24,000 bases of DNA from Streptomyces sp. NBC_00576 (GTDB taxonomy: Bacteria > Actinomycetota > Actinomycetes > Streptomycetales > Streptomycetaceae), in NCBI RefSeq assembly GCF_036345175.1, contig NZ_CP107780.1, forward strand, positions 4,958,871 to 4,982,870. Direction: 5' to 3'. Shown here in pieces: positions 1-8,150 of this stretch. The notes under the pieces are model-generated. The model had not been told where the DNA came from. It searched no databases and saw only the letters and a list, made by a program, of their open reading frames with translations. The first letter of the stretch is position 1, and the number at the start of each line of letters is the position of its first letter. A program made the translations under genes and the position numbers.

Positions 1-2
1 AC

Positions 3-527
3 GACACCCTCACCTGGACCGGCGCTCGTACGGTCCTCCTCGACCTCGCCGTACGCACCCGGCGCGGCGACCCCTTCGTCGTCTCCGACCTGGACGCACC
101 CGGCTGGCTGGAACGCTTCACCGCGCAGGACCGCACCCTCGCCCCGGCCGGCGAGCAGCTCCTCCAGGGCCAGTTCCCGATCGCCCCGCGCGCCTCCCGT
201 ACCGAGGGCATCGCCCGCGCCGAACAACTGCTCGACCTGGCCTTCGACGGCTGGCGCGAACGCGTCACCTGGCGCCGCGAGGCCACCGCGAACGGCCGTA
301 CCGGCGCGGTCGACCTGCCGGGTACGAGCTGGCGCGACCGGCCCGCGATCGAACGCGGCGACGGCGTCTACCTCGCCGGCGACCAGGTGGCCGCCCCCGG
401 CGTCCTCGCGGAGGTCTCCTTCAACAGCGCGCTGACCGCCGTTTCACTGGCACTGGGCAACCGCCGAAACCGCGACCGCCTCCACCATCTCGACCCTCTC
501 AACCCTCTTGACCTCAAGCGCGCTTGA
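3..527 (+). CDS. 3' end of an FAD/NAD(P)-dependent oxidoreductase (phytoene-desaturase/amine-oxidase-like); 5' end lies outside the window
   Basis: Frame open from nt 3 to TGA 525-527 with strong GC3 bias. The C-terminal sequence ...ERGDGVYLAGDQVAAPGVLAEVSFNSALTA... resembles the C-terminal FAD-binding motif of this family. It is absent from the ORF track because it has no in-window start. Confidence 0.55.
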   Translation, partial: DTLTWTGARTVLLDLAVRTRRGDPFVVSDLDAPGWLERFTAQDRTLAPAGEQLLQGQFPIAPRASRTEGIARAEQLLDLAFDGWRERVTWRREATANGRTGAVDLPGTSWRDRPAIERGDGVYLAGDQVAAPGVLAEVSFNSALTAVSLALGNRRNRDRLHHLDPLNPLDLKRA

Positions 528-538
528 GGTCAAAGAGT
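508..538 (+). promoter_or_regulatory. SoxR-type (MerR-family) operator inside a 19-bp-spacer promoter
   Basis: Perfect 26-bp palindrome TTGACCTCAAGCG|CGCTTGAGGTCAA at 508-533. Its core CCTCAAG-N4-CTTGAGG has the same half-sites and spacing as the E. coli soxS operator CCTCAAGTTAACTTGAGG (from memory). -35 TTGACC at 508-513, 19-nt spacer, -10-like AAGAGT at 533-538. Confidence 0.55.
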
Positions 539-617
539 AGGGACCCCAGCCGCCCACCACACCCTCGAAAACCGCGGCACGACCGGCAAGGTGGTACTGG
601 AGCCATGACGCACAGTT

Positions 618-649
618 GAGGGGGCGAGCCCACCAAGGCCCGCCCCCTC
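618..649. terminator. GC-rich hairpin between convergent genes (no U-tract)
   Basis: GAGGGGGCG (618-626) pairs perfectly with CGCCCCCTC (641-649). Extra GCC/GGC pairs are possible inside the loop. Confidence 0.4.
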
Positions 650-668
650 ACCGTTCGAACCGCCGAAC
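642..668 (-). repeat. Degenerate direct copy of the tRNA-Thr 3' end (acceptor 3' strand plus T-arm); putative att remnant
   Basis: GCCCCCT (642-648) and TTCGAACCG (654-662) are identical to 6275-6281 and 6288-6296 of the tRNA gene. Orientation is the same and the spacing differs by 1 nt. About 22 of 28 aligned positions match. Confidence 0.55.
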
Positions 669-684
669 CGCCGAACCGCCGAAC
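653..684. repeat. Tandem 8-mer CGCCGAAC: 3 perfect copies plus 1 degenerate
   Basis: Read directly: perfect copies at 661-668, 669-676 and 677-684, preceded by degenerate gttcgaac at 653-660. Confidence 0.95.
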
Positions 685-746
685 CGATAACGACCGACAA
701 CGACCGACAACGACCGACAACGACCGACAACGACCGACAACGACCG
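681..746. repeat. Tandem 10-mer CGACCGACAA: 5 perfect copies plus partial copies at both ends
   Basis: Read directly: five perfect units at 691-740, partial cgaccg at 741-746, and a degenerate unit gaaccgataa at 681-690. Confidence 0.95.
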
Positions 747-773
747 TCCACCAGCCGCCCCGGCCGCCTCAAC

Positions 774-3700
774 TCACCGCGCGACCGCCCCCGTCGCCTT
801 GCTCACCGCGACCCCGTCCTGGTGCCCGGCCCGCCGCGCGGTCACCTTCACGGTGATCTTCTTGCCCTTCTGGGCCGCCTTCAGCACGAGCGAGGACTTG
901 GTCGCCCCCGCGATCGCCTGACCGCCCGCGTACCACTGGTACGCGTACGACGTCGCCGCCGGACTCCACGTCCCGGCCGACGTCTTGAGCGCCTTCCCGA
1001 CCTTCGCCGTCCCGCCGATCACCGGCAGCTTCGTCGCCTTGGGCGCATCCCCCCTCGCCACGGCCACCGCGGCCGAGGTCGCCGACCCGCTCTTCCAACC
1101 GCCCTTGACCGCGGTGACGGTCACACTCAGCTTCCTGCCGAGCTGCCCGGCGGGAACGACATACGCCGCCGCAGTCGCCCCCGCTATCGCCTTGCCGTCG
1201 GCCTTCCACTGGAAGCTGTACGAGGACGGAGCCGCCGACCAACTCCCGGGCGCCGCCGTCACCTTGGCACCGACCTTGACCGTGCCGGTCACCTTCGGCG
1301 GGGCGGTGCTCCTCAGCTGGGGCTCGGCCACGGTGAAGAGTCCCCGCTGGAACTCCCGGCCCCGCGCGATCACGCTGACGCTCCACGTACCGGTAGCGGT
1401 TTCGCCGGTCAGGTCGAGGGTCGCCGTCAGCGTCCGGTTGTCCGGGGACACGCCTACCGTCCGCGCGGTCAACGTCCTACCGGACTGCGCCAGCCTGACC
1501 ACGGAATCCGCCGGAAGCGCGGCCCCCGTCACCGTGAGAGTGACCTTCGTGCCGGCGGCTCCCGTCGCCGGACTCACCCCTGTGACATCGAGTTTCTCAG
1601 GGCCGCACTGCGCATACGAGCACACCAGCCTGGCGCTGTAGGAGGTAGCGGACACCTTCTCCGGCAGACCGAGCACGAACACACTCGGAGTACTCGCCCA
1701 GGATGAGCCGAGCGGGTCGCAGTCGTAACCCTCCGGGATGTAGTGGATGCAGCCATTGGCCCAGGTCGACGCGTTGTACAGCGCAGGCACCGCCGTGTCC
1801 GCGGCGCCGGTCGTGTCCTTGATCTCCGTCTTGAAGTGGTCGAACCCGGACGTCGGCAGCGCCGCACACACCGCCGTGTGCGCCTCGTCCAGCCTGCCCA
1901 GGATCGGCCCATACCCGTACGCCACCGACGGCACCTTCACGCACTCCGGCGCCGGACCCTCGGCGGTCGCGATCCGCAGGGCGTCCAAACGGAAGGCATC
2001 CGGCGCCCTCAGGGTCGCCGGGACCTGCACGAGGACCTGGTGACTGGTGGAACCGGTAACCGCACAGGCGTTGTTGCGATACGAGCACTCCGTGTTCCCG
2101 TCAGCACCGATGACCGCGATGTTGCCGGTGCCCAGAGCGTCCCGCACGTTCATGTGCACCACATCCGTGGCGCCCGACGTGGTGATCCGACGGCAACTGA
2201 GGGTGCCCGGACCTCCATACGCACCGACAAGGGACGCGCCACCCACCTTGGCCGCCGCACTCGTGACACAACCCGCCGAACCAGCGCTAGCCGTCACGTC
2301 CCGGCGCGCCAGCGTGTACGTGGCGACCTTGTCCCAGCCATTGACGAGCACCGTGTGAGCGCTGCCCGGAGTGAGTCCACACACCGTCCAGCCATTGGTG
2401 GTGGCCCAGCGTTCACAGACCTGCTTGCCCGTGGAGTCCACCACCGAGAAACCCGCGCTCACCCCGCCCGAGGTGGCGATCAACTGGAAAATCTCCGCCT
2501 TCGTGTGTCCGTTCGCCGGGATGGTCAGACAGTGCGCGAAGACACCGCCCCCAGTGGCGAAGGACGCCTTGGCACCGTTCACGTCGAAACTACCGGCAGG
2601 CAGTTCGGCACAACCCTGCGCAGTGTCCGTACGAACCAGGTCGATGCCGTACGCCCCCGCCAACGTCCCAGAATCCGAGTGAACCAGCAGACGATAGGGC
2701 GCAGTGCCGGTGGGCGCACACGTGCCCGCACTCAGCGTCGTCTCGTCGCACTGCCCGACACCCGCGCTGTCGACAACCTCGTAGTCCGCATCAGGCCGCC
2801 CGCCGAGCGAGGTCAACGCCCCGAACGGCACCCCCCGCGCACCCGGCAGCACCAGACAGTCGTACTGACCCGGACCACCGAACTCACCCTGGTACAGCCC
2901 CCAACCGACCGTACGACACCCCTCGGTGCCCGTCCGGTCGAGGAACACCGTGGCGTACTCCGAGTCGCTGACCGCAGTGGGGTCACCCACCACCAGCGTG
3001 TACGTACCGGCGGCGGGAAACGCGCACCAACCACCCGCCTGACAAACCTTCCTGCCCGCACCGTCATAGACGTACGACCACAGATCGTCGCCCTGCTCAC
3101 GGCCGATCGGATTCACCAGATACCGGCCCGCGGCGAGCACACTCAGCGAACGGCAACGCACCCCACCCGCCTCGGGCACCGTCCCATACACACCGACCGC
3201 CACCACCGGGCAACCCTCGGCGTCAGACAGCCTTCGGACCTGGAACTCGTAGTCATACGGCAGCTGGTCGTCGTTGAAGACGTACGACAGCACGCGATAC
3301 GGGCCATCACCAGGCAGCACACACCCGTCCTCGTCGTCGCGCACACAGATGTCCGTACCGCTCGCGTCAGTGATCCACTGCCGTACATTCGAGCCGCGAT
3401 AGACGACAACACGCTCACCCGGCGCGCCCCGGAACGACCGGCAGTCGACCTCGACCGGGCTGACCGCCGTACCGCTCGTCACCGGCTGCCCCCAGGACGT
3501 ACCGACAGGCTCGGCACAACCCTCGGACCCGGCCAGCGCGACAACGGCCAGCTGATAGTCCGTGGCCCCGGAGGAACCCGAGTTGTCGACCACCACGGTG
3601 TACACACCCGCCGCCGGAAAATCACACCACCGCACGCCGTAACCAGGCGCCGTGCACTCGACGGACGCACCGTCGGCATCCACGACATTCGCGTAAGCGC

Positions 3701-3986
3701 CGTCCCGGGGATCCTCCACAGACACCTGATGCCGCCCCGCCTGGGCCGTCACCGTGTAACAGGCCTGCGCCCCACCCTCCAGCGTGCCCCGGGCCACGGC
3801 CTCCCCCGGATCACCGAACGGCGCGAGCGCGAGCGGCGCACACTCCGACTCAACGGCCCGCGCGGGCGCCGCCCCCACCGTCGTCGTCAACGTCAACAAC
3901 GAGCCGAGCAGCGCGACCAGGACGGCCCAGACGAGCAGCGGCACCGCCGACCGCCCGCGTCTTTCGGACAGGCAGAAGCCAAACAT
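774..3986 (-). CDS. Large secreted Cys-rich repeat protein: 7 PPC-like beta-sandwich modules, an IPT/TIG-like domain and 2 Ig-like repeats; no recognisable catalytic domain
   Basis: The track ORF is 774..4106. I place the start at ATG 3986 (MFGFCLSERRGRSAVPLLVWAVLVALLGSLLTLTTTVGAAPARA|VE), which has a GGGGGGA Shine-Dalgarno 5 nt upstream and gives a Sec signal peptide with an AxA site. Seven ~100-aa modules each carry 4 Cys in the recurring pattern GC...xC...C...C. Confidence 0.8.
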   Translation of the reverse strand: MFGFCLSERRGRSAVPLLVWAVLVALLGSLLTLTTTVGAAPARAVESECAPLALAPFGDPGEAVARGTLEGGAQACYTVTAQAGRHQVSVEDPRDGAYANVVDADGASVECTAPGYGVRWCDFPAAGVYTVVVDNSGSSGATDYQLAVVALAGSEGCAEPVGTSWGQPVTSGTAVSPVEVDCRSFRGAPGERVVVYRGSNVRQWITDASGTDICVRDDEDGCVLPGDGPYRVLSYVFNDDQLPYDYEFQVRRLSDAEGCPVVAVGVYGTVPEAGGVRCRSLSVLAAGRYLVNPIGREQGDDLWSYVYDGAGRKVCQAGGWCAFPAAGTYTLVVGDPTAVSDSEYATVFLDRTGTEGCRTVGWGLYQGEFGGPGQYDCLVLPGARGVPFGALTSLGGRPDADYEVVDSAGVGQCDETTLSAGTCAPTGTAPYRLLVHSDSGTLAGAYGIDLVRTDTAQGCAELPAGSFDVNGAKASFATGGGVFAHCLTIPANGHTKAEIFQLIATSGGVSAGFSVVDSTGKQVCERWATTNGWTVCGLTPGSAHTVLVNGWDKVATYTLARRDVTASAGSAGCVTSAAAKVGGASLVGAYGGPGTLSCRRITTSGATDVVHMNVRDALGTGNIAVIGADGNTECSYRNNACAVTGSTSHQVLVQVPATLRAPDAFRLDALRIATAEGPAPECVKVPSVAYGYGPILGRLDEAHTAVCAALPTSGFDHFKTEIKDTTGAADTAVPALYNASTWANGCIHYIPEGYDCDPLGSSWASTPSVFVLGLPEKVSATSYSARLVCSYAQCGPEKLDVTGVSPATGAAGTKVTLTVTGAALPADSVVRLAQSGRTLTARTVGVSPDNRTLTATLDLTGETATGTWSVSVIARGREFQRGLFTVAEPQLRSTAPPKVTGTVKVGAKVTAAPGSWSAAPSSYSFQWKADGKAIAGATAAAYVVPAGQLGRKLSVTVTAVKGGWKSGSATSAAVAVARGDAPKATKLPVIGGTAKVGKALKTSAGTWSPAATSYAYQWYAGGQAIAGATKSSLVLKAAQKGKKITVKVTARRAGHQDGVAVSKATGAVAR
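777..1298 (-). repeat. Intragenic tandem duplication: two 83-aa Ig-like repeats at the C-terminus of the secreted protein
   Basis: PKVTGTVKVGAKVTAAPGSWSAAPSSYSFQWKADGKAIAGAT... aligns with PVIGGTAKVGKALKTSAGTWSPAATSYAYQWYAGGQAIAGAT... (about 1050-1298 and 777-1025), separated by an 8-aa linker. Confidence 0.75.
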
Positions 3987-4115: not shown

Positions 4116-4769
4116 TCAACGCCTCAACGCCCCCAGCGTCTCCCTCGGACTCCACACCTCCCCACCCCGCCGACCCGTCAACGGCCAACAGGCAAACCCA
4201 ACAAGCACCGCAGTGAAATGCCCGAGATCAGTGAACGTACGAGACAAGACGAGCGGCACCCCGTACACCACAAGAACACCCCCCACATACGCATACCGCC
4301 AAGGCCGCGCCACCCGATACGCGAGCACGGCCACCACCCCCGCCAGCCCGTAACTCACCCCGAAATCCATCGTGTCCGCCGCCGACGCCGGCGCAGAACC
4401 GTCCCGGATCGCCCGCCACACCGCACCCTGACTGACCAACGTCGCCAACACATGCGCACTCACACACACCACAAGCCACCGCACGGTCCCCAACCACCGC
4501 TCGACCGACGCATGAAACACCGAATACAGAACGAGGTACGGAGTCCACCACCCGTCGATCCACATCGCACTGGAGATCAACACCCGCACCGGATGGTCCG
4601 ACAACTCATTGATGTTCGTCGACCGCTGCCGCAGGAACTCCTCCTGAAACTCCGCCGACATGTGATGTATGGCCACCGTCGTGAAGAACAGGACCAGCAG
4701 CCACACATAAGTGCCCGGAGCACTACGAACGTAAGCCCACACCCCGCGCGGACCCGCCGAAAATCGCAT
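4116..4769 (-). CDS. Polytopic membrane protein, rhomboid-like fold (divergent)
   Basis: 217 aa with about 6 hydrophobic segments. ASVERWLGTVRWLVVCVSAHVLATLVSQG resembles the GlpG segment [23 protein letters not shown]. It has a GxSxGxxG motif (FGVSYGLAGV) and a late-TM His (DLGHFTAVLVG), but no TM2 HxxxN motif. It lies upstream of, and on the same strand as, the secreted protein gene. Confidence 0.6.
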   Translation of the reverse strand: MRFSAGPRGVWAYVRSAPGTYVWLLVLFFTTVAIHHMSAEFQEEFLRQRSTNINELSDHPVRVLISSAMWIDGWWTPYLVLYSVFHASVERWLGTVRWLVVCVSAHVLATLVSQGAVWRAIRDGSAPASAADTMDFGVSYGLAGVVAVLAYRVARPWRYAYVGGVLVVYGVPLVLSRTFTDLGHFTAVLVGFACWPLTGRRGGEVWSPRETLGALRR

Positions 4770-4775
4770 GCCCCA

Positions 4776-4781
4776 AATTTA
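4776..4781 (-). promoter_or_regulatory. -10 box TAAATT for a leaderless transcript starting at ATG 4769
   Basis: The minus strand reads TTGGCG-16 nt-TAAATT-tggggc-ATG. The 6-nt gap between -10 and start codon is typical of leaderless actinobacterial mRNAs. Confidence 0.45.
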
Positions 4782-4791
4782 CGCACGCACA

Positions 4792-4797
4792 TACAGT
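4792..4797 (+). promoter_or_regulatory. -10 box TACAGT for a leaderless transcript starting at GTG 4804
   Basis: The plus strand reads TACAGT-cgccaa-GTG with a 6-nt gap. No Shine-Dalgarno precedes either candidate start. Confidence 0.45.
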
Positions 4798-4803
4798 CGC
4801 CAA

Positions 4804-5691
4804 GTGATCCGCATCCGCGTCCCCGACGAACTGGCCGCCACACAGCTCAAGTACAACGGGGAGGCAGGCCGCGCCTTCATCACCGCACTCCCCACCCGCA
4901 CCGCCGACTTCCTCGACCACTGGAACCTACGCATCGACGGCCAGGCAATGCACGGCGTAACAGCCCTGGTCCTCCCGGTCCTACGCGCCGACGACACCCC
5001 AGCCGCCCTCAAACTCCAACTCCCGGACGACGAGAGCAAAGACGAACCAACCGCCCTCCGCCACTGGAACGGCGACCACGCCGTACGCCTCCTGGACCAC
5101 GACCCCACCACCGGAACGATGCTCCTGGAACGCCTCGACCACACCCGAATGCTGTCCCACCACCCCGACGCCCACGAAGCCACCCTGATCATCGCCGACC
5201 TCCTGACCCACCTCACCGCCATACCGGCCCCACCCGGCATCCGCCTCCTCGGCGACATCGCAGAAGGAATGCTGAACGAAGCGCCACAGGCACTCCCCCA
5301 AATCCCGGACCCCGAAGCCCGCACCCTCCTCAAGGACTGCGCGGCAGCCCTACGCGAAGTGGCCCCGGAACCCGGCGACCGCCTCCTCCACTGGGACCTC
5401 CACGACGAAAACGTCCTCGCCGCCCACCGCGCCCCCTGGCTCGCCATCGACCCGAAACCCCTGGCCGGAGACCCCGCCTTCGACCTCTGGCCGGCCATCA
5501 ACAACCGCTTCGACGCCAACGACATCCTCTGGCGCTTCGACGCCCTGACAGACGCCCTGTCCCTGGACCGCGAACGGGCACGCGCGTGGACCCTCGCCCG
5601 GGTACTCCAGAACACCCTGTGGCACATCAAAGACGGCGACCCACCAGAGGAACCGGACCTGGAGATCGCACGCCGACTACGCCACCCCTGA
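4804..5691 (+). CDS. Aminoglycoside phosphotransferase, APH(6)/streptomycin-6-kinase/hydroxyurea-resistance kinase family
   Basis: Kinase catalytic-loop motif LLHWDLHDENVL followed by IDPKPLAGDPAFDL, as in the APH(6) family. The track start ATG 4768 overlaps the divergent gene's ATG within CATG. In-frame GTG 4804 with a leaderless -10 is preferred. Confidence 0.75.
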   Translation: MIRIRVPDELAATQLKYNGEAGRAFITALPTRTADFLDHWNLRIDGQAMHGVTALVLPVLRADDTPAALKLQLPDDESKDEPTALRHWNGDHAVRLLDHDPTTGTMLLERLDHTRMLSHHPDAHEATLIIADLLTHLTAIPAPPGIRLLGDIAEGMLNEAPQALPQIPDPEARTLLKDCAAALREVAPEPGDRLLHWDLHDENVLAAHRAPWLAIDPKPLAGDPAFDLWPAINNRFDANDILWRFDALTDALSLDRERARAWTLARVLQNTLWHIKDGDPPEEPDLEIARRLRHP

Positions 5692-5720: not shown

Positions 5721-6221
5721 TCACACAACGCACTCCATACACACCAGCCGCTCCCGCCCATCCCACGACTCGGTGACGACGAACCCGAACCGCTCGTACA
5801 GAGCAATGGCCCCGACCCGCCACTCCCACACGGACAGCCGCACGCTGCTGACCCCACCTTCCGCAGCACCCGCAAGCGCGGCACGGAGCAGACCGGAAGC
5901 GATCCCCCGCCCCCGGAACTCCGGATCCGTCCACAACCTCTTGATCTCCGACCGCCCACCGACGGAAGCGGCCACCACCACACACCCCACGGCAGCGCCC
6001 CCGCTCAGGGCCACCAGCACGACATCGCCGACGAACGCGGCCCGCGGATCCGAGATCTCCGCCCGATACCGCCCCGGCAGCCCGTCCACGTCGGCAACGG
6101 CCTGGCCCTTCTCGGCCTCGGTCCGCAGGTGATAGGCGGCCAACAGCCCGGCCAGCCCGCTATCAGCGGAAGGGGACTGCTCCGGCCAGCGGACGACCAC
6201 AACCTCGCGCTGATCAGTCAT
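5721..6221 (-). CDS. GNAT-family N-acetyltransferase
   Basis: 166 aa with acetyl-CoA-binding motif A ...RLWTDPEFRGRGIASGLLRAAL... and a typical GNAT C-terminal beta-strand (YERFGF). TATGCT-cgcgcc-ATG suggests a leaderless start. Confidence 0.85.
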   Translation of the reverse strand: MTDQREVVVVRWPEQSPSADSGLAGLLAAYHLRTEAEKGQAVADVDGLPGRYRAEISDPRAAFVGDVVLVALSGGAAVGCVVVAASVGGRSEIKRLWTDPEFRGRGIASGLLRAALAGAAEGGVSSVRLSVWEWRVGAIALYERFGFVVTESWDGRERLVCMECVV

Positions 6222-6439: not shown

Positions 6440-8150
6440 GAAAACCAAACGTAACCATCCGCGCACCCGTTCGTTGATCGCTCTGACGTGCGTTCCGAAG
6501 ATCGGATCGTCGGGGAGGGATTCATGGGGAAGCCGGGGGAGTCGGTGGAGAAGCCGAGGCTGGAAGCGGTGACAGGCGAGGAGGCCGAGCGCATCAAGCG
6601 CGAGGCCCTCGGTATCGGCGACCGCCGCAAGCACCACCAGCGCACGGCGACTCCGTTGAAGGCGCACGTCAAGGAGCCGGATACGCAGCACCGCCTGTAC
6701 CGCTTCCGCTTCTACCCGACCGCCGAGCAGGCGGAGCAGTTGGCGAAGACGTTCGGTGCCTGTCGGTGGGTCTACAACGAGGGGCTGGCGCTGCGGTCCG
6801 GGGCGTGGGAGCGGCATCGGGTGAATGTGGGGTTCGCGGAGTCGTGTCGGGCGTTGACGGGCTGGAAGCGGGCGGAGAAGACGGCATGGCTTGGGGAGGT
6901 GTCGTCGACGGTGCTGCAGCAGTCGTTGCGGCATCTCGATCAGGCGTTTGGGCGGTTCTTCAAGGGGTCGGGGAAGTATCCGCAGCGGAAGAAGAAGGGG
7001 CGTTCGCGGGATTCGGCGACGTATGTGCGGACCGGTTTCCGGTGGGTGGAGGATTTGGAGCGGCCGGGTACGGGGCTCATCACGCTGGCGAAGCAGTCGG
7101 TGCCGTTGGATGTCCGGTGGTCGCGGGCGCTGCCTGTGGGAACCGTTCCGGTGCGTTTGTCGGTGACGCGGGACCGGGCTGGGCGCTACTTCGTGTCGAC
7201 GCTCGTGGAGGAGCGGATCGCGCCTCTGCCTACCGCCTTTGTGCCGGGTTCGCTGGCGCCGATGGCGGTGGGGCTGGATCTGGGGTTGGCGTCGCTGGTC
7301 ACTCTGGACGACGGGACGAAGGTCGATCATCCGCGTCTGTTGAGGCGGTACGCGGAGAGGTTGGCGCGGTTGCAGCGGGAGCTGCACAAGAAGGTGAGGG
7401 GTTCGGCCAACCGGGACAAGGTGAGGCGGAAGATCGCGCGTCTTTACGCGCTCATCGGTGACGTTCGCAGGGACATGTTGGACCAGTTCACGACCCGCCT
7501 GGTGCGCGAGAACCAAGTGCTCGTGGTGGAGGATCTGGCCATTGCGAATCTGATGCGTCCGGCGCGTGGCAAGGGTCGTCGTCGGAAGGCGAAGTTGAAC
7601 GAGGCGATCATCGATGCCGCCTGGGGCGAGTTGTTGCGGCAGCTGCGGTACAAGTGCGAGTGGTACGGGCGGACGCTGGTGATCGTCGACCGGTTCTTCC
7701 CCTCCACGCGGCGCTGCTCCGCGTGTCATACCAAGGGTCCGAAGTTGGATGTCTGGGTCCGGGAGTGGACGTGTGCCGAGTGTGGGGTCGTCCATGACCG
7801 GGATGTGAATGCGGCTGTGAACCTTCGTGACGAGGGCCTGCGGTTGTATTGGCTGGTGGCGGCCGGGCTGCCGCCCACGAAGGGAGTACCGGCGCTGATC
7901 AGGGCGTCGGAGCTGGAGGATTGTCTGCTGGCCGCTTAGCGGCGGCTGGGTGGTACGGACCGACGGGCCGTCGGCCGGAATGCCTGTGGAGCGCGTGTAA
8001 GACCGTTCGGGCGCAGTTCATGAAGGCTGTGTGCGTCGGCGGTGCGTGATGAAGCAGGAAGCCTCACGGCAAGGTCAAAAGTGCGGTGCTCTGCCTACTC
8101 GTAAGTTTCCGTCTCGAAAATTCTCGCGAAGTTCACATCCCCCCAGGTAC
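6440..8150 (+). mobile_element. IS200/IS605-superfamily tnpB-only element (IS1341-like); boundaries approximate
   Basis: Contains only tnpB and no tnpA. Imperfect palindromes lie near both ends: CCGAAGATCGGATCGTCGG at 6495-6513 and CCGACGGgCCGTCGG at 7960-7974. Codon bias differs from both flanks. The right limit is inferred from where coding-like host sequence resumes, at about 8156. Confidence 0.35.
6524..7939 (+). CDS. tnpB: TnpB (OrfB) RNA-guided endonuclease/transposon-associated protein
   Basis: N-terminal YRFRFYPTAEQ...CRWVYN, RuvC-I GLDLG, RuvC-II VVEDL, zinc ribbon CSAC...CAEC, RuvC-III HDRDVNAAVNL. Start placed at ATG 6524, with GGAGG 5 nt upstream; the track start is GTG 6488. Confidence 0.9.
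   Translation: MGKPGESVEKPRLEAVTGEEAERIKREALGIGDRRKHHQRTATPLKAHVKEPDTQHRLYRFRFYPTAEQAEQLAKTFGACRWVYNEGLALRSGAWERHRVNVGFAESCRALTGWKRAEKTAWLGEVSSTVLQQSLRHLDQAFGRFFKGSGKYPQRKKKGRSRDSATYVRTGFRWVEDLERPGTGLITLAKQSVPLDVRWSRALPVGTVPVRLSVTRDRAGRYFVSTLVEERIAPLPTAFVPGSLAPMAVGLDLGLASLVTLDDGTKVDHPRLLRRYAERLARLQRELHKKVRGSANRDKVRRKIARLYALIGDVRRDMLDQFTTRLVRENQVLVVEDLAIANLMRPARGKGRRRKAKLNEAIIDAAWGELLRQLRYKCEWYGRTLVIVDRFFPSTRRCSACHTKGPKLDVWVREWTCAECGVVHDRDVNAAVNLRDEGLRLYWLVAAGLPPTKGVPALIRASELEDCLLAA

Follow-up and report, generated by a model that had tools for sequence, protein, structure and literature searches.

The soxS promoter of E. coli is the prototype of promoters activated by SoxR and the MerR family, at which the activated regulator untwists the DNA. 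Its operator, CCTCAAG-N4-CTTGAGG, is centred in an over-long 19-bp spacer, and the -35 hexamer overlaps the left half-site. The SoxR targets of Streptomyces differ from soxS in that they are enzymes and transporters and not a second regulator. Their 19-nt spacer architecture and the untwisting mechanism are common to the E. coli promoter (PMC8867992). One of these targets, SCO4266 (ecaD), has been confirmed in S. coelicolor, where its expression is down 29-30-fold in a soxR mutant. Its S. avermitilis orthologue, sav_3956, is expressed in a SoxR-dependent manner, and the sav_3956 promoter is bound by SoxR in EMSA (PMC8867992). Table S4 of Naseer et al. 2014 places the S. canus orthologue of SCO4266 at 78720-79704, with the soxbox CCTCAAGCATGCTTGAGG at -61 (PMC4146615).

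Here, we analysed a 24-kb stretch of Streptomyces DNA (the window, by which we mean the whole of it), in which a preliminary description had drawn attention to a perfect SoxR-type palindrome that points at no gene. It had been suggested that this site drives a small RNA or an antisense transcript, that it is a promoter which lost its target when an island integrated, or that it is a palindromic terminator. Judged from the sequence and its relatives, the palindrome reads as the SoxR operator and promoter of ecaD, a gene for an MDR-type NAD(P)H quinone oxidoreductase that is known to belong to the SoxR regulon of Streptomyces. We put at roughly nine in ten the probability that this box was stranded by an internal deletion of ~950-970 bp that removed nearly all of ecaD, and that it is what a lost gene left behind rather than a novel small-RNA system. 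Read in this way, the locus is a known promoter in a degenerate state, an ordinary evolutionary relic.

Architecture and conservation of the SoxR box

The palindrome, TTGACCTCAAGCGCGCTTGAGGTCAA, can be read directly from the sequence at positions 508-533 of the plus strand; it is perfect over 26 bp, as originally claimed. Its core, CCTCAAGCGCGCTTGAGG (512-529), matches the 18-bp inverted repeat CCTCAAG-N4-CTTGAGG exactly, and the identical 18-mer is listed 5' of the SCO4266 orthologues of S. gancidicus, S. hygroscopicus, S. prunicolor and S. venezuelae (PMC4146615). Within the 24 kb this is the only match to the repeat, even when two mismatches are allowed, against a chance expectation of 0.06 per shuffled window at that tolerance. 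As at soxS, the box is centred in a 19-bp spacer (514-532) between a -35 hexamer, TTGACC (508-513), that overlaps its left half-site and a -10-like hexamer, AAGAGT, at 533-538 on the plus strand, the same geometry being found in relatives. Both hexamers and the spacer length had been recognised in the preliminary description and stand; the -10 position that it implied, 534-539, does not. From the -10 hexamer, transcription is predicted to start at about 544-547. This promoter differs from soxS in its weak -10, its GC-rich context and the lack of a downstream gene. Taken together, these features point to a rightward SoxR-type operator and promoter, with the spacer of MerR-style activation, that has no target gene in this genome.

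Promoter activity in the leftward direction was considered and rejected. The -10 would be AGAGGG, and the flank that would supply a leftward -35 is not conserved, reading GGTTGAA in most loci; the reverse orientation is indeed the poorer one, as had been noted. A generic scan for sigma-70 promoters and terminators made no call at the palindrome region, because it allows spacers of 16-18 bp only and requires a T-tail. In keeping with the earlier statement that the window holds no soxR, the SoxR-type cluster motif CxGCGCxS is not encoded in any frame of the 24 kb.

Whether the box is conserved in related genomes had been proposed as a check, and we carried it out with 80 Streptomyces loci (designated L001 and so on), one per species, fetched with the 174-residue end of the protein encoded upstream. 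The box is present in 78 of the 80 at the same position, where it overlaps or closely follows the end of the same FAD-oxidoreductase gene, and in 71 of the 80 an intact ORF of 326 aa begins ~55-300 bp after it. In a box-anchored alignment of the 71 species with an intact downstream gene, TTGACCTCAAGC..GCTTGAGGT is at least 90% conserved, compared with 35-60% in the flanks. Relatives have the consensus TTGACC-N19-AAGAGT or AAGGCT, with GGG next to it, and both the 19-bp geometry and the hexamers are kept in all 71; the variable positions of the box are its central 4 nt.

The identity of the gene behind the box was settled by coordinates. One of the loci (L025) is S. canus NZ_KB911609.1, with the box at contig positions 78642-78659 and the ORF at 78721-79704; since these coincide with the published S. 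canus coordinates, the conserved box is the soxbox of ecaD (SCO4266). The 326-aa ORF has the N-terminus MHAIRLH and the C-terminus ENRGTTGKVVLEP, contains ADH_N and ADH_zinc_N domains, and among NCBIfam models is most similar to the PIG3-type NAD(P)H quinone oxidoreductases (quinone_pig3-like). No exact match to the published SCO4266 qPCR primer was found in the loci; the 326-aa ORFs do contain the encoded peptides, MGILQF and VQYAKN. The window thus has the ecaD soxbox at the same genomic position, as judged by synteny and the S. canus coordinates, with the same type of 18-bp box, the same overlap of box and -35 and the same 19-bp spacer, and differs in that the regulated gene is gone, its last 19 codons, stop and terminator being all that is left.

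These comparisons bear on the suggestion that the palindrome is mainly the transcription terminator of the upstream FAD-oxidoreductase gene and that its resemblance to a SoxR box is incidental. The palindrome does overlap the stop codon of that gene, as first described, the TGA at 525-527 lying inside the right half-site, and as RNA it folds to -19.4 kcal/mol. Against a terminator, the half-sites are invariant in more than 70 species with no compensatory changes, and where single-base variants occur, as in CCTGAAG...CTTGAGG, the pairing is broken and the other arm is left uncompensated. Such a pattern is typical of a protein-binding site and not of an RNA stem. Variation confined to the central 4 nt is also what a SoxR box predicts, a conserved -10 lies at exactly 19 bp, no T-tract follows the palindrome, and the locus is that of the published ecaD soxbox, at whose orthologous promoters binding of SoxR has been shown. 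A terminator that merely looks like an operator fits this evidence poorly, and we consider that reading highly improbable; a secondary role in termination, in addition to that of operator, is possible.

Remains of ecaD behind the promoter

Between the upstream stop codon and the convergent gene, whose end lies at 774, are 246 bp (528-773) with no credible ORF, in agreement with the approximately 240 bp reported before; a 4-codon ATG..TGA is present at 605-619. When window positions 1-1200 were compared with the loci by blastn, the homology fell into two blocks. The first, from 1 to ~540-550, takes in the box and reaches just into the leader. The second, from 549/550 to 609-631, has its counterpart in relatives ~970 bp downstream, where ecaD comes to its end. 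Over the final ~60-80 nt of the gene, identity is 82-90% in the close relatives L001, L002, L003, L006, L007 and L009, and more distant loci also match the ecaD 3' end of the window. With the ecaD protein as the tblastn query, only residues 308-326 were found in the window, at 549-605 and with 84% identity, and these are followed by the stop TGA at 606-608.

The ecaD remnant on the plus strand (549-608) accordingly comprises codons 308-326, ending in AAHHTLENRGTTGKVVLEP, and the stop. The C-rich tract CCCAGCCGCCCACCACACCC, previously remarked on as part of a possible transcript, belongs to it and corresponds to the codons ...AAHHTL, where relatives read ...AAAHRAL. No in-frame start codon precedes the remnant, which is therefore untranslatable. 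The deletion junction, at 540-549 of the plus strand, is where homology to the ecaD leader ends and homology from codon ~308 begins, as seen with blastn, in the alignments and by comparison with the L081 sequence. Missing are ~950-970 bp, made up of the leader with its ribosome-binding site, the start codon and the rest of the first 307 of 326 codons. As a target for the promoter, then, there are codons 308-326 without a start, and the next gene is convergent.

Among relatives with these neighbours on either side of the locus, L081 is the closest, a metagenome contig from ENA with 89-92% nucleotide identity. There, the FAD oxidoreductase gene is followed by the box, a full-length ecaD, the GC-rich hairpin that the window has behind the remnant, and the convergent gene for a protein of 1070 aa. 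Positions 1-547 and 549-650 of the window match positions ~970 bp apart in this contig and in L001, L007 and L009; both ends of the locus are collinear with the intact one, the interior is missing, and synteny with L081 holds on both flanks. Because L081 has the same neighbours and still carries ecaD, the deletion is specific to the lineage of the window. The alignment of L082 (87% identity) to the window stops at 552, where ecaD continues in L082, and from 566 on 41 nt of the window are identical to it. A microhomology, CCCAG/CTCAG, is possible at the junction.

Two peculiarities of ecaD were observed in these relatives. In L081 (7317-8296), the gene is called as two ORFs, of 268 and 59 aa, owing to a 1-nt gap at ..GTCTT-GGCTGG.. 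that is either a frameshift or an error of metagenome assembly. In L082 (3581-3640), ecaD is without a stop and has gained an (E/D)PNP-repeat tail, and the hairpin is absent.

In the window, a GC-rich hairpin without a T-tail follows 9 nt past the ecaD stop, at 617-650 of the plus strand. With a folding energy of -27.8 kcal/mol and a z-score of -5.3 (0 of 200 shuffles were as stable), it bears out the stable structure that had been placed at 618-649. In L081, the same hairpin sits about 40 nt past the ecaD stop, and many relatives have their own hairpin after the stop of the gene. The hairpin is ecaD's own terminator, probably bidirectional and shared with the convergent gene.

On this reading, the deletion extends from a few bases past the predicted start site, at about 544-547, to codon 307, and has joined the promoter directly to what is left of ecaD: 19 terminal codons, the stop and the terminator hairpin. 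If SoxR is present in the organism, the oxidised protein would be expected to occupy the intact box and to switch the promoter on by untwisting the 19-bp spacer. The outcome would be an untranslatable RNA of ~100 nt that ends at the hairpin, a by-product rather than an evolved regulator.

Such a promoter could, in principle, have been put to new use. It would fire upon oxidation of SoxR, and the ~100-nt RNA (545-650), the box as a decoy site for SoxR, or read-through transcription antisense to the gene for the 1070-aa protein would have gained a regulatory role and come under selection. In favour of such use, the box and both hexamers are intact in the window while other orphaned boxes have decayed (see below), and a strong terminator hairpin would yield a discrete product of ~100 nt. 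If this were true, the locus would be a snapshot of the birth of an sRNA from a gene remnant under a redox-sensing promoter. The evidence from the transcribed region goes the other way. No Rfam match was found in window positions 1-2000 at E <= 1; the 545-650 segment consists of ecaD codons 308-326 and the terminator of that gene, and relatives have it only within the full gene; and the fold of 116 nt is weakly structured and not robust outside the terminator. Among the loci compared, none from another genome showed this truncated arrangement. What had been put forward as an sRNA is therefore the last 19 codons of ecaD, its stop and its terminator, and not a conserved RNA, and we regard exaptation in any of these forms as very unlikely.

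A different concern is that the deletion is an artefact of assembly and that the strain really has an intact ecaD. The near-identical short-read contigs L083 (100%) and L085 (99.8%), which look to be of the same strain, end at window position 717, so that the junction is uncovered by them, and all three of L083, L084 and L085 stop at or before this position. However, the breaks in L083 and L085 fall inside a 10-bp tandem repeat, 170 bp from the junction. The contig from which the window was taken is, at 10.9 Mb, chromosome-scale, and the junction is not flanked by any long repeat through which ~960 bp could have been collapsed; an assembly artefact is unlikely on both counts. Loss or decay of ecaD is, moreover, common in related lineages. 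We would give this explanation hardly any weight, and the least of those considered here.

Loss of ecaD and decay of its box in other lineages

Orphaned ecaD boxes were encountered at several other loci in our comparison. No ecaD was found after the box in S. echiniscabiei (L004), NBC_01390 (L005), S. graminilatus (L008) or S. scabiei (L040), and for S. scabiei no SCO4266 orthologue is listed in Table S4 (PMC4146615). These four share another downstream sequence and, therefore, probably descend from one older event. S. graminilatus keeps the ecaD start ATGCACGCCATCCGC (MHAIR, the first five codons) before the breakpoint. The boxes of the four have 1-3 mismatches and lie at about 5477-5495, except in S. 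graminilatus, where the box is at 936; the -35 has become TCGACC in L004, L005 and L008, and in L040 no -35 is left.

Three further loci have each taken another course. In Streptomyces sp. NPDC097941 (L031) the whole of ecaD has been lost and the box abuts the convergent gene. S. thermocoprophilus (L045, 5543-5943) has an ecaD pseudogene with an internal deletion, in which only residues 3-42 and 231-326 match, behind a box with an intact core and the -35 TCGACC. In S. acidicola (L076, 5486-5942), a perfect soxbox in the same position is followed not by ecaD but by a gene for a 143-aa DUF4440/SnoaL-like protein; from its sequence, this could be a SoxR promoter that acquired a different gene.

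The orphaned boxes of L040, L004, L008, L031 and L045 resemble that of the window in being the same promoter left without an intact ecaD after a deletion. They differ in representing independent events with other breakpoints, and most of them carry 1-3 mismatches or the -35 TCGACC, whereas the box of the window is perfect. Boxes with two or more mismatches make up 3 of the 8 loci without an intact ecaD and 1 of the 72 with one (Fisher p = 0.003), a difference that is only suggestive since the losses are phylogenetically non-independent. To account for the still-perfect box of the window we favour a recent deletion; the upstream ORF, whose end overlaps the box, could also have constrained it, or some use may have been retained.

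These observations have implications beyond the window. A regulator site of textbook perfection that has no gene to drive can be a fresh scar of gene loss, and predictions of regulons from motifs and predictions of sRNAs would both misread such a locus, which calls for caution in annotation. EcaD emerges as a dispensable member of the SoxR regulon that has been lost repeatedly: the roughly 80 species compared account for at least four or five independent events. The orphaned boxes have decayed to differing degrees and, as a small natural series, could be used to gauge the rate at which an unused operator erodes.

Flanking genes and minor features

The gene upstream of the box enters the window as its 3' part only, 174 codons and a stop at 3-527 of the plus strand, in frame 3. 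Searches of the 174-aa fragment against Pfam and NCBIfam gave no match. From its translation, the names of its homologues (FAD-dependent oxidoreductase, phytoene dehydrogenase-like) and its full-length orthologue in L081, a protein of 429 aa with NAD_binding_8 and FAD_oxidored domains, we assigned it to the phytoene-dehydrogenase-like FAD-dependent oxidoreductases. Its tail (480-527, the last ~20 codons, ending in HHLDPLNPLDLKRA) contains 3.2 copies of the 9-bp repeat CTCAACCCT, and the stop codon is supplied by the box. This C-terminus is variable, in that many orthologues match residues 1-152/154 only, and the tail is more likely to be read-through into promoter sequence than an extension with a function.

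Between the hairpin and the convergent gene lie two perfect or near-perfect tandem arrays, 3.9 copies of CGAACCGC (656-686) and 6.4 copies of ACCGACAACG (683-746), both absent from L081.

The convergent gene, at 774-3986 of the minus strand, encodes a secreted IPT/TIG-domain protein of 1070 aa, as judged from a domain search and the names of its relatives, which are called 'Tat pathway signal protein' or PPC-domain protein and are widespread in Streptomyces at 55-60% identity. In L034, L062, L063 and L081, the gene lies directly tail-to-tail with ecaD. Since it adjoins ecaD in these relatives, both flanks of the window's locus are ancestral, the loss being confined to the body of ecaD. Integration of an island, the cause of loss envisaged in the preliminary description, is rejected on these grounds: the promoter did lose its target, but by a simple internal deletion that left an ancestral ecaD neighbour in place. 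Further on are genes for a Rhomboid_2 protein (4116-4769, minus strand), an APH(6)/hydroxyurea-kinase-like protein (4768-5691, plus strand) and a GNAT acetyltransferase (5721-6221, minus strand), followed by an IS605-type TnpB gene with OrfB_IS605 and Cas12f1-like TNB domains (6488-7939, plus strand). This last element may be what had earlier been taken for an island.
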